Shown in pieces: positions 13,371-51,551 of a DNA stretch of 64,000 nt. The notes below the pieces were generated by a model. The model ran no database searches, was not told the DNA's origin, and saw only the letters and a list, made by a program, of their open reading frames with translations. The translations under genes were made by a program, and so were the position numbers. This DNA comes from a virus (lineage: Duplodnaviria > Heunggongvirae > Uroviricota > Caudoviricetes): the IMG/VR virus record IMGVR_UViG_3300010430_000005, positions 83,467 to 147,466 of that record, one strand, 5' to 3'. The stretch's first letter is position 1. The number at the start of each line of letters is the position of its first letter.

Positions 13371-13393
13371 GATTATAAATATAGAGGTATAAA

Positions 13394-13612
13394 ATGTATC
13401 CCGAACACAACATCAAATATGAAACCAACAGTAAAAAATTCTGGATGATCACTGGTGATGGAAATCAACCACGTGTTCGACACACAAACAAAAAACGTGC
13501 TACTGATGAAGCAGAGCGTCTTGCTCGTGCAAATCCTGGTATCAAATTCTACGTGCTTGAAGCAGTAGAAGTTTTTGAACAACCCTGTGGCATTCGTCAC
13601 GAAAAACTATAA
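13394..13612 (+). CDS. conserved small phage protein (EAERLA..PG..FYVL)
   Basis: motif; TATAAATA at 13374-13381. Confidence 0.75.
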   Translation: MYPEHNIKYETNSKKFWMITGDGNQPRVRHTNKKRATDEAERLARANPGIKFYVLEAVEVFEQPCGIRHEKL

Positions 13613-13647
13613 ATAAATTTGTGGCATTCATTTGCCACAAAAAAAGT

Positions 13648-13691: not shown

Positions 13692-15185
13692 ATGAAAAAT
13701 ATTTTACACCTACTAACCGCAATTATTCGCACAGATGGATATAAGACCAGTCAGTTCTTGCAGTATCCAAAAGACACTACGCATATCAGTTCGTATATCG
13801 AATCGCGTGGTGGAGAACGTGAAAGTGTATTCTTTGGGGCGCAAGCATTTATCAAAGATTACATGATGAATCCATTCACAATGGCAGACATTAATTTTGC
13901 AGAAAAAGTTTTCCGCAAATATGGTGTTCCCTTCAACCGCAAAGGCTGGGAAATCATTGTCAATGAGTATGGTGGTATGCTCCCCGTCGAAATTGAAGCA
14001 GCCCCAGAAGGGACTGTTATGGAAACAAGTAATGTCCAACTTCAAATTGTCAATACAGATGACCGGTTGGGATGGTTGACTAGTTATGTAGAGACTGCAC
14101 TGTTGCGCGGAATTTGGTATCCATCAACTGTTGCGACAAAGTCCCGTAAGATCAAAAAGATTATCGCAAAAGGTCTGTATAAGACAAGTGATATTCCGCT
14201 TGATATTTTGATGGGTCCGGTTCTGAAATTTACTCTAAACGATTTCGGTGCCCGTGGAGCAAGTTCTACTGAAACTGCTGTTCTTGGCGGAATGGCACAC
14301 TTGGTAAACTTCTGGGGTAGTGATACCATTGAAGGCATGATTGGCGCATATGCTTACTACAATGCGGATATTTTTGATCCAGAGACTACACCAGTAGCAG
14401 GGTCAATTCCCGCAAGTGAACATAGCACTATGACTAGTTGGGGAAAAGAGAACGAAGTTGACGCATATGAAAATATGATTGACCAATTCTCAGCACCTAG
14501 CAAAATCTATGCCTGCGTAAGTGACAGTTATGATATCTACAATGCGGTAAAAAACCTATGGGGCGATGCTCTAAAAGTGAAAGTCATTGAAAGTGGTGGA
14601 ACTTTGGTTGTGCGTCCCGACTCGGGTGATCCTACTACCGTTCCTATTGAAATTCTGGATATTCTTGCTGAAAAGTTTGGATATACTGTAAACTCAAAAG
14701 GATTTAAAGTTCTTGCACAACGCGAGGATGGTAGTGCTATCGTTAAGGTCATTCAAGGTGACGGATTGAATGAAGAGACTTTGCAGGTTTTGATTGACAA
14801 TATCATCAAAGCAAGGTATAGTCTTGAAAACATTGCCTTTGGTATGGGTGGTGGCTTGCTGAATAATGTTAGTAGAGACACATTAAAATACGCTATGAAA
14901 GCAAGCGCACGGCGCGATGCAAATGGTGTGTGGCACTATGTATTTAAAGACCCCATCACCGACAAAAGCAAAACTTCTAAGAAAGGTCGCCTTGCGCTTG
15001 TTTATAATTGTGGTCTTGGTAGTTGTTCTTATAAAACTGTTCCAGAATTTGTCGCACAAGAACGCGGCGAGAACCTTCTACGCAAAATTTTTCGCAATGG
15101 GGAATTGCTTGTAGAAGATGATTTTGAAACAGTTCGTGAACGTGCTGAATTGCTTGAGGAAGAATATATTCCTCAAGAAATTTAG
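13692..15185 (+). CDS. nadV: nicotinamide phosphoribosyltransferase (NAMPT)
   Basis: TDGYKTSQ, WYPSTVAT, DFGARG, PASEHS, VSDSYD, VVRPDSGDP, IQGDG, AFGMGGGLL. Confidence 0.96.
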   Translation: MKNILHLLTAIIRTDGYKTSQFLQYPKDTTHISSYIESRGGERESVFFGAQAFIKDYMMNPFTMADINFAEKVFRKYGVPFNRKGWEIIVNEYGGMLPVEIEAAPEGTVMETSNVQLQIVNTDDRLGWLTSYVETALLRGIWYPSTVATKSRKIKKIIAKGLYKTSDIPLDILMGPVLKFTLNDFGARGASSTETAVLGGMAHLVNFWGSDTIEGMIGAYAYYNADIFDPETTPVAGSIPASEHSTMTSWGKENEVDAYENMIDQFSAPSKIYACVSDSYDIYNAVKNLWGDALKVKVIESGGTLVVRPDSGDPTTVPIEILDILAEKFGYTVNSKGFKVLAQREDGSAIVKVIQGDGLNEETLQVLIDNIIKARYSLENIAFGMGGGLLNNVSRDTLKYAMKASARRDANGVWHYVFKDPITDKSKTSKKGRLALVYNCGLGSCSYKTVPEFVAQERGENLLRKIFRNGELLVEDDFETVRERAELLEEEYIPQEI

Positions 15186-16350: not shown

Positions 16351-16614
16351 GTGACAATTGAAAATATAAAAGCAGGGTTTTGGCAAGTTCAAGACAAAGT
16401 TGATAAATCAACTATCCAAAAATTCACAAGTTCATGTGACCGTGATGATTGCTGTGTCAGTGCCAGAATGATTAGCGAAACAACTTGTATGGGAATATCA
16501 GACCATTATTATAAACAGGGTAGATTAATTATCAGCGATCACAACAGGCATAAAGTTTCTATGTGTTGTAGTAAATGTTGGCGTCATGAAGTGATGAATA
16601 ATTATGAAAATTGA
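16351..16614 (+). CDS. Cys-rich hypothetical protein
   Basis: GTG start after RBS repeat. Confidence 0.6.
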   Translation: MTIENIKAGFWQVQDKVDKSTIQKFTSSCDRDDCCVSARMISETTCMGISDHYYKQGRLIISDHNRHKVSMCCSKCWRHEVMNNYEN

Positions 16615-16804
16615 AACAGAAGATTATTTTTGGGAATGCGGCGATGGTTGCTGCACTCAATACGGAACCTATCTGTATATTGATGGAAAGCTACTGGAAG
16701 ATCGTGAGTTTAGTAGTTCTGGAGATGCTTATCAGTATGTTCTAAAAGAAATGCTAGGTCACGAAGTAGATTATATCTACAATGAGGATGAGGATGAAGA
16801 ATGA
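16604..16804 (+). CDS. small acidic phage protein (WECGDGCC)
   Basis: motif common in myophages. Confidence 0.7.
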   Translation: MKIETEDYFWECGDGCCTQYGTYLYIDGKLLEDREFSSSGDAYQYVLKEMLGHEVDYIYNEDEDEE

Positions 16805-16965
16805 AACCTGATGGAAAATTAATAGCAGAACAACTTGCAAAAGAATTGGCAAGTGTTCAACCAATGCCTAGTGATTGCTTGAAAAATTTATATGAAGCAA
16901 GCAAATCGGAAGATGAACTTAGGAAAGATGGATATGAACCTGTTAGCGGTTTGGGTCTTATGTGA
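16801..16965 (+). CDS. 54-aa protein with capsid Gol-like segment (QLAKELASVQPM)
   Basis: ATGA coupling; 6/12 identity to gp23 residues 94-105 LIAYDIAGVQPM. Confidence 0.65.
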   Translation: MKPDGKLIAEQLAKELASVQPMPSDCLKNLYEASKSEDELRKDGYEPVSGLGLM

Positions 16966-16972
16966 GTAAAAG

Positions 16973-17110
16973 ATGAGTAACAATTGGATAAACTGGCGAT
17001 TTGGTAAATATCATTTGCAAATCGGACCAGATGAAAGGTTTTGGATTAGTTTTAGGAAGAACACTTTTTGGGTTTCTCATTCTTATGAGAAATGGTTTGA
17101 GAGGTATTAA
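16973..17110 (+). CDS. small Trp-rich hypothetical protein
   Basis: 45-aa ORF filling the gap. Confidence 0.5.
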   Translation: MSNNWINWRFGKYHLQIGPDERFWISFRKNTFWVSHSYEKWFERY

Positions 17111-17318
17111 ATGAAAATAAAAGCATCAACTACAATTCAACTACCAAAATGTATTGACAAATTTCCTACGGAAACTTGGTGCAGAAAAAAGGAAACGTAT
17201 CCTAACATTCTTTGGACTTTGGACAGCAGAAGATGAATTGTATGAAATTCTGTCGGAAGAAATCCGTAATGAAATTGACAAAGAAATTCTTGCAAAGGTG
17301 AAAATAAATGAAAACTAA
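17111..17318 (+). pseudogene. small protein with gp23 spine-helix-like segment; apparent +1 frameshift within 17119-17164
   Basis: RKLGAE..GLWTAEDELYEILSEEIRNEIDKEIL versus gp23 RALKAE..GLDAETELSNILASEVLAEINREVV. Confidence 0.65.
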
Positions 17319-17628
17319 TTGTATTATATGTAAATGCGAAATTGACAATTGGGACATTGCCTATCCCGAAAATGAAGCACAAGTTCATCCAATTGGAGGC
17401 ACTGCATTCCGAACATATGGTCATTATGGTTCTACTATTTTTGACCCTATGGATGCGACATACCTAGAAGTTGTGTTCTGCGATGATTGCTTGAAAGAAA
17501 GATTGGAATATACATATGAAGGTGTCAACCAAAAATACAAAGCAGAATTGGAGGAACAACGCAAAGAACAAGATGAACTGATAAACTTTATTTTAGAAGA
17601 AAGAGAAAATGATGACAACGGTTCGTGA
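17308..17628 (+). CDS. hypothetical protein with Cys pairs
   Basis: CIIC...CDDC; GHYGSTIFDPMD. Confidence 0.7.
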   Translation: MKTNCIICKCEIDNWDIAYPENEAQVHPIGGTAFRTYGHYGSTIFDPMDATYLEVVFCDDCLKERLEYTYEGVNQKYKAELEEQRKEQDELINFILEERENDDNGS

Positions 17629-17977
17629 ACAAGCAAAGCAAGAAGCACTGAAAAAACTAGAAGGTCGCAAATCATTGAGAGATGGTATGACATCAGAACA
17701 GTTAGATTTTCTTGCGAATTATAACGGTCCTATTGAAGTTGGGGCAGTTACAAACGCGCACCCACATCATACATCAGAATATGTAGAATGGATGGCAGGG
17801 GTTTGGAAAGAAAATTCCGAACGCCAACAATGTAATGTTGCTTTTGACTTTCTTTCCCCACACAACGGCGAGTACTGGTACAAATGCACCACCTGCGGAG
17901 CAAAAGATTGGTTTGCTCGTTACGATCTGCCGTCGAGCAACGAGCCGATAAAGGGGTGCAAGAATAGTGACTTATGA
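17609..17977 (+). CDS. hypothetical protein
   Basis: coupled ORF, CTTC. Confidence 0.6.
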   Translation: MMTTVREQAKQEALKKLEGRKSLRDGMTSEQLDFLANYNGPIEVGAVTNAHPHHTSEYVEWMAGVWKENSERQQCNVAFDFLSPHNGEYWYKCTTCGAKDWFARYDLPSSNEPIKGCKNSDL

Positions 17978-50240: not shown

Positions 50241-51551
50241 TTACATAAGATTGGAAATCCTAACGCGGCGGTAATATTAATTAGTATTCGCTGTTAGTGC
50301 GCCAGAACCTTGGTCAGCACCTTGTGCAAACGGATTCGCAACCATGCCGTAGCGTGTTTTGAAGCCGATCTTAGGCTGGAATGTGTTTTCACCAACCGCA
50401 CGAACCATCTGTAGCGGAACGTATGGGCAGTAAAATAGACCTGCATCAAATGCGCTTGCGCCTTTGTAGCCTACTACCATGTAGTTAGCACCCGCATATG
50501 GGTCAATGTAAACACGGAAGCGACCGTTTAGAACACCAGCAAAAGTGTTGCCTGTGTCGTCTACGTTCAATGCGTTGCTGTTAAGAGCAGGAGCATAGTC
50601 TAGGACGCCTGCCATCTGTAGAGCCGATGCAACATCGCTCGAACAAATGATTATGTTACCTTTACCTCTGCGTGTTCCTTTTGCGATAGCGTTAGCTTCA
50701 CGCTCGATCTGGAACATAAGACCTTTAAACTTCTCAACGCTCCAACGACCGTTTGCGTCTACGTCTAAGTCAAATACACCGGCAGTTGCTGTACCTTCAG
50801 AAGCACCTGTTACCGCAGTGTTGTATATAGTACGAACAACTTCACGGTTGATTTCTGCAAGAACTTCACTTGCTAGGATGTTTGAAAGTTCAGTTTCGGC
50901 GTCTAGACCGTGTACCGCTTTCAAGTCCTGAGCTAGTTCAGTAGTGTATTCTGCCTTAAGCGCGCGGCTCTTAGCTTCCACAGCTACTTTCTCGATTGAG
51001 AACGCCATTTCTGCAAACGCTGTACCGCCAGTAACACCTAGTGCTTCTGCGTCGCCAGTAGCAATACCAGTACCAGTGTTAGCAGTAGCTGCTGTACCAG
51101 TAGTGCCTTCCATAGTGCCTGTACCTGCGAAGTCAGTATCTGCTTCGTTGTACATTGCTTCGGTCCAAGTTGCGTTGTTTGCAGGTGTGTTAGCATACTT
51201 AGAACGCATAGCAAAGATCAAGCCAGTTGGGCCAGTCATTGGCTGTACGCCTGCGATGTCGTATGCGATTAGGTTAGGCACGGAACGACGAACTAAGCTT
51301 ATCAACACAGGGTCATAACCTGCAGTTGGGCCAGTTGCTGTTGCGCTGCTACTAAAACCACCAGTGCCAGAAACGTTAGTTGTTTCCATCAAAGAAGTCA
51401 TTCTTGCGGAAGTAGGATCTTCTTTAAGAGCGATTTCAGTGTTCTCTAGAATAGTGGCGGTAACGCTTTTTCTGTGAGAGTCTTTGATCGAATCAAAAGA
51501 TTCGTGCTCAAGAATTGGCTGCCACTTGTTAACAATAGAGTTGTTATCCAT
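50241..51551 (-). CDS. gp23: major capsid protein (in-frame TAA at 50277-50279, 11 codons before the expected end)
   Basis: DPVLISLVRR..GVQPM.GPTGLIFA, SRALKAEY, KGL..RGKGN, FYCPYVP, GFKTRYG; YYRRVRISNLM follows the TAA. Confidence 0.97.

Follow-up and report, generated by a model that had tools for sequence, protein, structure and literature searches.

The Gol peptide corresponds to residues 93-122 of gp23, the major capsid protein of T4. DSAD1 is a phage inhibitor of DSR2 that competes with the structural-protein trigger and is not derived from the sequence of that trigger. SaPIbov5 Ccm, SaPI CpmB and P4 Sid are satellite proteins that redirect capsids, Ccm being itself a homologue of capsid proteins. 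Capsid proteins trigger bacterial immunity, as seen with Gol/Lit and CapRel (PMC13728456), and the sensed element can be a short unfolded segment of a phage structural protein (bioRxiv 10.1101/2024.02.24.581848). In T4, one of three groups of head-length mutations (A268V, A275T, D285V and D287V/N) lies close to a short, negatively charged helix of the gp23 P domain; near the quasi-threefold axes this helix engages adjacent capsomers in charge contacts (PMC9546572).

Here we describe a small gene derived from gp23 in a 64,000-nucleotide stretch of DNA (the window, by which that whole stretch is meant) from a 150-kb IMG/VR viral record, ~75% complete, of an uncultured marine T4-like phage. It is one allele, broken by a frameshift, of an accessory gene conserved among uncultured marine T4-like phages; in its intact form this gene is selected, dispensable and rare, and encodes a mini-protein that reproduces a defined segment of gp23.

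Results

A mini-gene split by a single base

The mini-gene (17111-17318, plus strand) is a single gene whose frame is interrupted by one surplus T, located in the TTT run at 17162-17164; its features are collected in Table 1. The ATG lies immediately 3' of the TAA of an upstream 45-codon ORF, intact homologues begin at the place equivalent to this ATG, and the stop overlaps the ATG of the next gene at 17308. The ATG frame closes at 17236, and the second frame, open from 17121 to 17318, encodes the peptide beginning RKLGAE that was quoted in the initial annotation; both frame and peptide were reproduced here. That annotation had also placed one extra base somewhere in 17119-17164, and the TTT run is found at the very end of that range. 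In a DNA alignment with 4 homologues the window has a surplus of exactly one base, which falls in AAATTTCC (17159-17166). The C at 17169 gives CGG (Arg) in the window, where all 4 aligned homologues have TGG (Trp).

Table 1. Positions of the mini-gene, its parts and related features (window coordinates unless a locus is named)
Feature	Position	Strand	Basis or remark
NAMPT gene	13692-15185	plus	Pfam NAPRTase 1.3e-51, NAMPT_N 4e-20
Late-promoter motifs TATAAATA	13374-13381; 13608-13615	plus	ahead of NAMPT; nearest to the mini-gene on its strand
Gol-like mini-gene	16801-16965	plus	carries VQPM; corresponds to N-terminal segment of gp23
GAGG ribosome-binding site and ATG start	17101-17104; 17111-17113	plus	read from sequence
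N-terminal part, ATG frame (MKIKASTTIQLPKCIDKF)	17111-17164	plus	remnant of gp23 P-domain strand LKAEYTTELAQ; family alignment, hhalign
Lesion: extra T, +1 shift; C at 17169	17162-17169	plus	X2 contig; DNA alignment
C-terminal part, second frame	17166-17318	plus	basic helix, spine-helix motif, stop 17316-17318
Match to Pfam Gp23 positions 170-194 (spine helix)	17226-17300	plus	13.3-17.5 bits, below cut-off
gp23 major capsid protein gene	50277-51551	minus	424 codons as annotated; Pfam Gp23 E 3e-141
Parent segment, gp23 residues 193-244	50820-50975	minus	hhalign, family vs P0001, E 6e-5
Gol-like relatives	L021 2908-3162; L023 2776-3156; L024 2449-3510
Mini-gene in L025 (P0010)			39 bp downstream of NAMPT
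Mini-gene in L010 (P0009)			85 bp downstream of NAMPT
Mini-gene in L004-L007			0.4 kb downstream of NAMPT
Mini-gene in L008			1.1 kb downstream of NAMPT
Mini-gene in the window			1.9 kb downstream of NAMPT
Mini-gene in L011 (P0008)			3 kb downstream of NAMPT

Logan contigs from 4 public runs were compared over 16600-17700. Run X1, a marine sediment metagenome, reproduces the window sequence with the extra T included, an agreement that is not independent since X1 is probably the source sample. A contig of ~482-483 bases from run X2, which belongs to another study and another year, is identical save that the base at 17162 is missing and that T stands at 17169; this allele is in frame and has the Trp restored. 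Either the two near-identical genomes truly differ by this frameshift, or the source data contain an error. The window copy of the mini-gene is probably inactive and, because it is broken, nothing here demonstrates that the mini-protein is made.

A programmed +1 frameshift, in which the ribosome would slip from UUU to UUC at UUU-C and so yield the full-length product, is highly improbable. A +1 slip of tRNA-Phe at TTT C (17162-17165) would indeed give an in-frame ...IDKF-LRKLGA..., but no homologue requires a shift, the near-identical X2 allele is in frame, there is neither a slow or stop codon after the site nor a stimulatory element, and the following codon also carries the damaging Trp-to-Arg change.

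Relationship of the mini-protein to gp23

The gp23 gene of this phage lies 33-34 kb from the mini-gene, in agreement with the 34 kb previously given, and the minus strand of the window also encodes a T4-type scaffold protein, portal and tail sheath. This gp23 is ~66% identical to those of the Sinorhizobium phiM12 group, Methylophilales phage Melnitz and Stenotrophomonas phage DLP6, and 63% identical to those of cyanophages P-RSM6 and P-TIM40. Its ORF stops at an in-frame TAA (50277-50279), after which the same frame runs through YYRRVRISNLM to a second stop (50241-50279, minus strand); relatives have a sense codon at the position of the TAA and end in a conserved tail YYRRVRV-NLF. Either a nonsense mutation has arisen in the main capsid gene or the TAA is an error there; taken with the frameshift at 17162, it hints at several lesions in this record.

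BLASTP of the window ORF against the phage's own gp23 gave no alignment. Against Pfam PF07068 (Gp23) it scored 17.5 bits (E 0.003), and 13.3 bits in the genome scan, the curated cut-off being 24.4 bits. The window ORF taken by itself is thus weak, and it is the family of its relatives that carries the case beyond chance. Two family members, P0013 (43.2 bits) and P0009 (32.2 bits), pass the cut-off; each matches Gp23 in two stretches, which in P0013 are strand then helix, in the gp23 order, and both retain a fuller gp23 strand KSRxLxAxYT (for P0013, VEAKSRQLSAEYTIEE). As these two members lie above the cut-off and the window ORF below it, the family is to be regarded as homologous to a gp23 segment and the window ORF itself as no Gp23 protein. 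Gp23 was the top family among 24,736 Pfam families for 9 of the 10 members, always at profile positions 169-195; the family covers only positions 136-195 of the 376 in the Gp23 profile, short of a complete HK97 fold.

Alignment of the family with the phage's own gp23 by hhalign gave residues 193-244, strand and helix together (E 6e-5, probability 65%). This segment runs from the P-domain strand through the short P-domain helix into the beginning of the spine helix. When the family HMM was run over 4028 six-frame ORFs, the family was followed by a gp23 mosaic in L002 (E 1e-7; see below) and the window's own gp23 (E 7.5e-4), the next unrelated match having an E of 0.44; within the window and the loci of this genome, the phage's own gp23 was the best ORF outside the family. 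Composition-preserving shuffles, scored with an HMM of this gp23 clade, reached the real score in 0-5 of 1000 cases for each of 14 sequences.

The initial annotation had held that a match reflecting nothing more than generic amphipathic-helix composition, here that of an acidic helix, would speak against its reading. The empty BLASTP search and the window ORF's score below the Pfam cut-off point toward such a chance likeness, as does a search of the family profile against PDB sequences, in which T4 gp23 appeared at E ~0.35 with one unrelated protein ranked higher. Against this stand the two members over the cut-off with two stretches each, the specificity for Gp23 in 9 of 10 members, the hhalign result and the shuffles; the Pfam, hhalign and shuffle results rule the explanation out as a candidate, and its being correct is extremely improbable. 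On these sequence comparisons, the likeness to gp23 is one of true homology, not of helix composition.

The mini-protein is colinear with gp23: it has a strand remnant (IKAETKI), an inserted stretch, a KFFG-L helix, which hhalign places opposite gp23 LKAVHG-L, and then the spine helix. The basic helix in the C-terminal part (KLGAEKRKRILTFFG) corresponds to QDLKAVHG, the short P-domain helix of gp23. The initial annotation had matched the second-frame peptide to gp23 residues 196-239. Its helix portion stands, with 10/22 residues identical by eye against gp23 218-239; the pairing of RKLGAE with RALKAE is probably accidental, since the true partner of the gp23 strand lies upstream of the frameshift. 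This partner of gp23 (A)KSRALKAEYTTE is, by the family alignment and hhalign, the ATG-frame N-terminus MKIKASTTIQ, which reads IKAETKI in the relatives.

The mini-protein family

A word-indexed protein search returned 3 intact relatives of 66-71 residues, 68-72% identical and spanning the whole read-through; the window's ATG frame is matched by their N-termini (MKAETKINLPKWIDK...) and its second frame by the rest. The intact homologues P0003 to P0006 have 66-72 codons, are 68-72% identical and keep the same gene order, and once the extra T is removed the window ORF can be aligned with its relatives over the full length (68-72% identity). Among 1.84 billion representative proteins, searched exhaustively with a profile, there were 12 matches only, of which 11 are small proteins (53-103 residues, E 6e-34 to 4.5e-4); intact ORFs are found in 11 clusters that are <50% identical to one another, and the intact P0005 form is present on 20 contigs. 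The twelfth match, P0007 (4809 residues), is unrelated or unclear, as it shares IL-x-YFG-x-WTIGD repeats only and has no match to the spine helix; this metagenomic protein has at least 11 repeats of the DK-x-x-V-IL-x-YFGTWTIGD type, resembling the KRILKFFGLWT turn of the mini-protein. Neither the region nor P0005 had a match in 50,697 deposited phage genomes, searched at DNA and protein level, and no cultured carrier phage was found.

The family can be defined by a length of less than ~105 residues, an N-terminal strand remnant, a helix ending in FFG/LG and the motif ED-E-L-x-x-I-L-x-E-E-I-x-x-E-I-D-x-E-I. The window ORF agrees with this definition in all but the intact frame, which it lacks through the one-base insertion at 17162-17164.

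Selection was estimated as dN/dS (Nei-Gojobori) from five close related sequences, the window being read without the extra T and the pairs not being independent of one another; the ratio was 0.15 for the spine-helix motif, 0.23 for the basic helix and 0.43 for the N-terminus, with pairwise values for the whole gene of 0.15-0.57. By these estimates the spine-helix motif is under purifying selection in the relatives, and the absence of such selection, which the initial annotation had held would speak against its reading, was not what was found.

These values also bear on whether the gene is debris, a decaying and functionless leftover of gp23 duplication or recombination. The window copy, with its frameshift and an Arg for an otherwise invariant Trp, looks the part, and rearranged gp23 mosaics do occur elsewhere, that of L002 among homing-endonuclease genes. 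The intact ORFs in 11 clusters of <50% mutual identity, the ratio for the motif, the conserved start, stop and translational coupling, and the 20 contigs with an intact P0005 form all argue the other way. Decay therefore fits the window allele and not the family, for which conservation and selection largely refute it; as an account of the gene it is very improbable.

An AlphaFold2 model of P0003, built from the family alignment (pLDDT 79), has helices at 11-19, 22-31 and 37-65 and an extended stretch over the first ten residues; on this prediction the mini-protein would be a small protein of three helices whose N-terminal strand is left free. When the PDB was searched with the model by Foldseek, nothing fell below E 7, and a feature search of the ESM Atlas gave only unnamed clusters, below 0.9. 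The N-termini MKAEKKINLP, MKAETKINLP and MTIENIKAE, inspected by eye, show no clear Leu/Ile-x-Glu site for the prohead protease; they align with the gp23 strand.

Another possibility is that a helical piece of gp23 has been recruited as a building block for a job unrelated to the capsid, such as that of a small regulator binding nucleic acid or protein through its basic helix. It is in this helix (EKRKRILKFF), basic and new where gp23 has an acidic one, that the mini-protein departs most strongly from gp23; packing of the acidic spine helix against it, as the model allows, would give a self-contained three-helix protein, the PDB holds nothing similar by Foldseek, and the gene sits in operons of small genes without assigned function. 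However, the positions held in common with gp23 include an acidic as well as a hydrophobic stripe, and the gp23 strand remnant is kept even in distant members, so that more than the re-use of a generic helix would seem to be involved; we consider this explanation unlikely.

P0005 (71 residues; L005 978-1193) opens with MTIENIKA, the first eight residues of an 87-codon ORF (16351-16614 in the window) that is found, in the window as in L008, four genes upstream of the mini-gene. From its sequence, the P0005 form looks like a deletion that fused two genes at their shared IKA, removing the Gol-like gene and its neighbours.

The Gol-like neighbour gene

The initial annotation had proposed that two different gp23 segments sit in neighbouring small genes, forming a panel of capsid decoys. 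For the spine-like mini-gene the derivation is borne out by the results above; for the Gol-like one the support is weaker. The Gol-like ORF has an orthologue in L008, and a word-indexed search with it found only itself. A scan of viral contigs gave Gol-like relatives in five, one of them of 368 kb; those of L021 and L023 reach 19.6 and 20.1 bits at Pfam Gp23 positions 5-31, below the cut-off, and the stretch LIPLVRKMNPQRIAEDICDVQPM of L023 matches gp23 LISLVRRSVPNLIAYDIAGVQPM at 14/23 positions by eye. On this evidence the Gol-like ORF looks to be derived from gp23, less securely than the spine-like mini-gene. In L024 the Gol-like motif is fused behind an AAA_33 kinase-like domain, and members of the Gol-like family close with a conserved module, GYEPVS-LGLMW-KK, reminiscent of gp23 GYDPVLISL.

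The spine-like mini-gene is not itself a form of the Gol peptide, as it aligns to residues 193-244 of its own gp23 and not to 84-115, the VQPM segment. Nor do the two genes form a fixed pair, and the proposed panel is not supported: they occur together only in the window and L008, the spine-like gene of L005-type phages (20 contigs) has no Gol-like companion, and 0/5 Gol-like loci have a spine-like gene within 3 kb.

Genomic neighbourhood

Downstream of NAMPT, a gene of NAD salvage, comes a series of small genes in tight coupling, the mini-gene among them, and in six contexts NAMPT is found directly or closely upstream of it (Table 1). P0015 is encoded between the genes for DHFR and thymidylate synthase, and P0004 downstream of a helicase gene. 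In L011 the gene that follows the mini-gene encodes a T7 Gp5.9-type RecBCD inhibitor (41 bits), and in L008 a Gad2 gene lies 3 kb downstream. The NAMPT-linked surroundings fit an accessory, partly anti-defence region; the linkage to NAMPT may reflect no more than shared gene order in a single phage clade. A tryptophan-rich ORF of 45 codons (16973-17110) separates the two capsid-fragment genes of the window; it is near-identical in L008 (2589-2726) and has no family match.

The T4-type late-promoter motif TATAAATA occurs 11 times in the window against 4.1 expected, and precedes gp23, the scaffold gene and other head genes on the minus strand; the scan of the window found no such motif adjoining the mini-gene. 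For the two capsid-fragment genes, presumed early in the initial annotation, the nearest motifs of this kind on their strand are those before NAMPT (Table 1). A scan for sigma-70 promoters and terminators gave fewer sites than in shuffles.

A rearranged form of gp23 is found in L002 (5534-6531; = L003, IMG/VR contig 3300028581_000056), where coupled ORFs of 100 and 232 codons carry permuted gp23 blocks in the order Pfam Gp23 304-361, then 134-197, then 4-59, with the A domain absent. The mosaic adjoins a PPK2 kinase gene, a TROVE-domain gene and several HNH/GIY-YIG endonuclease genes, and it contains the helix ILSEEIRNEID, as in the mini-protein family. Judging by this helix, it may be an intermediate form.

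Discussion

Our favoured proposal is that the mini-protein would present a copy of the gp23 surface (193-244) to a putative partner that normally meets gp23. The candidate partner that we prefer is a host factor for the sensing or handling of freshly synthesized capsid protein, such as either an immune sensor or its chaperone, which the mini-protein would occupy without triggering. Such mimicry of gp23 toward a host factor is put forward tentatively; it is preferred because of the accessory and anti-defence setting of the gene, its patchy distribution and the known role of capsid proteins as immune triggers. We infer the decoy role from the mimicry together with the accessory, partly anti-defence neighbourhood. 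Against it, a faithful mimic of a trigger should activate the sensor and not block it, unless it binds without triggering, and to our knowledge no defence system reads the gp23 segment 193-244. A predicted complex between gp23 (P0067 alignment) and the mini-protein (P0005 alignment) scored 0.00, which counts neither for nor against binding.

The segment copied is also of interest for the architecture of the head. As a whole it (193-244 of the phage's own gp23) equals T4 gp23 262-311; the family profile itself aligns to T4 gp23 284-311 (PDB 6uzc chain a), an alignment that, at E ~0.35, was used for numbering only. The positions of A268V, A275T, D285V and D287V/N fall inside the copied segment. 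The counterpart in the mini-protein of the acidic P-domain helix is longer and basic, so that the surface presented would not be a faithful copy of gp23.

Alternatively, the mini-protein could be a modulator of capsid assembly, which would mimic the inter-capsomer edge of gp23, bind gp23 or the scaffold, and either tune the assembly of its own phage or poison that of a co-infecting T4-like phage. We give this some weight because the copied segment, with its group of head-length mutations, is the contact region that controls head length. Furthermore, the N-terminal strand remnant is conserved throughout the family and unpaired in the model, and would be free to add to a sheet; the family is seen only alongside T4-type gene sets, and T4-type late-promoter motifs do lie upstream on the same strand, before NAMPT. 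On the other hand, the gene is placed among accessory and metabolic genes on the strand opposite to the head genes, it is dispensable, being broken here and absent from nearly all T4-like phages, and a dominant-negative fragment would also endanger the phage's own capsid. We regard a role in assembly as rather unlikely, and keep mimicry toward a host factor as the preferred reading.

A broader statement would cover both kinds of action: T4-like phages would keep a class of mini-proteins cut from their own capsid protein as stand-ins that blind capsid sensing or alter capsomer contacts, and the ORF of the window would be a recently inactivated member of one family of this class, a family linked to the NAD-salvage (NAMPT) anti-defence region. 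This is possible, and on the unlikely side.

Capsid proteins are among the main signals by which bacteria detect phages, and the copied segment also helps to set the size of the T4 head. Should the mini-proteins block capsid sensing, they would represent a novel kind of counter-defence, one built out of the trigger; should assembly be their target, they would serve as a natural means of controlling capsid geometry or of competition between phages. Either way they offer short, testable peptides directed at a defined surface of the HK97 fold. The value of the window copy by itself is smaller, since that copy is broken.

As to novelty, a limited literature search for capsid decoys, mimics and fragments did not turn up any account of genes of this kind, gp23-fragment mini-proteins are without a Pfam family, and PHROGs gave only weak matches, to the unannotated phrog_14392 (47 profile positions). 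As far as these searches show, and within the literature searched, a conserved small gene that copies just this segment of gp23 has not been described before.

Among known proteins the closest are gp23 itself and its vertex paralogue gp24 (PF07068, HK97 fold; PDB 6uzc, 5vf3, 1yue), to which the mini-protein is homologous and colinear over T4 262-311; like gp24, the mini-gene is a second gene derived from gp23 within one phage. The mini-protein differs in having 66-72 residues where gp23 and gp24 have 420-520, in being encoded outside the head-gene block and in carrying a longer, basic helix in place of the short acidic one; without an A domain, E-loop/insertion domain, N-arm or P-loop it cannot form a shell. 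The resemblance to Gol and Lit is that a short gp23 segment acts there, and could act here, by itself as the ligand of a partner that is not a capsid protein; the Gol peptide, however, is part of full gp23 and has no separate gene, whereas the mini-gene copies a different segment and has no known partner of the Lit kind. With DSAD1 and DSR2 the proposed logic would be the same, in that a small phage protein occupies a sensor that otherwise binds a virion protein; DSAD1 is not derived from its trigger, whereas the mini-protein, known here from sequence, is derived from gp23. Finally, Ccm, CpmB and Sid are related to a capsid protein or fit onto it and alter the assembly of the head, and the mini-protein is likewise related to a capsid protein; those, however, are full-size or scaffold-like proteins that satellites direct against a helper, whereas the mini-protein is a fragment of 66 residues encoded by the phage.
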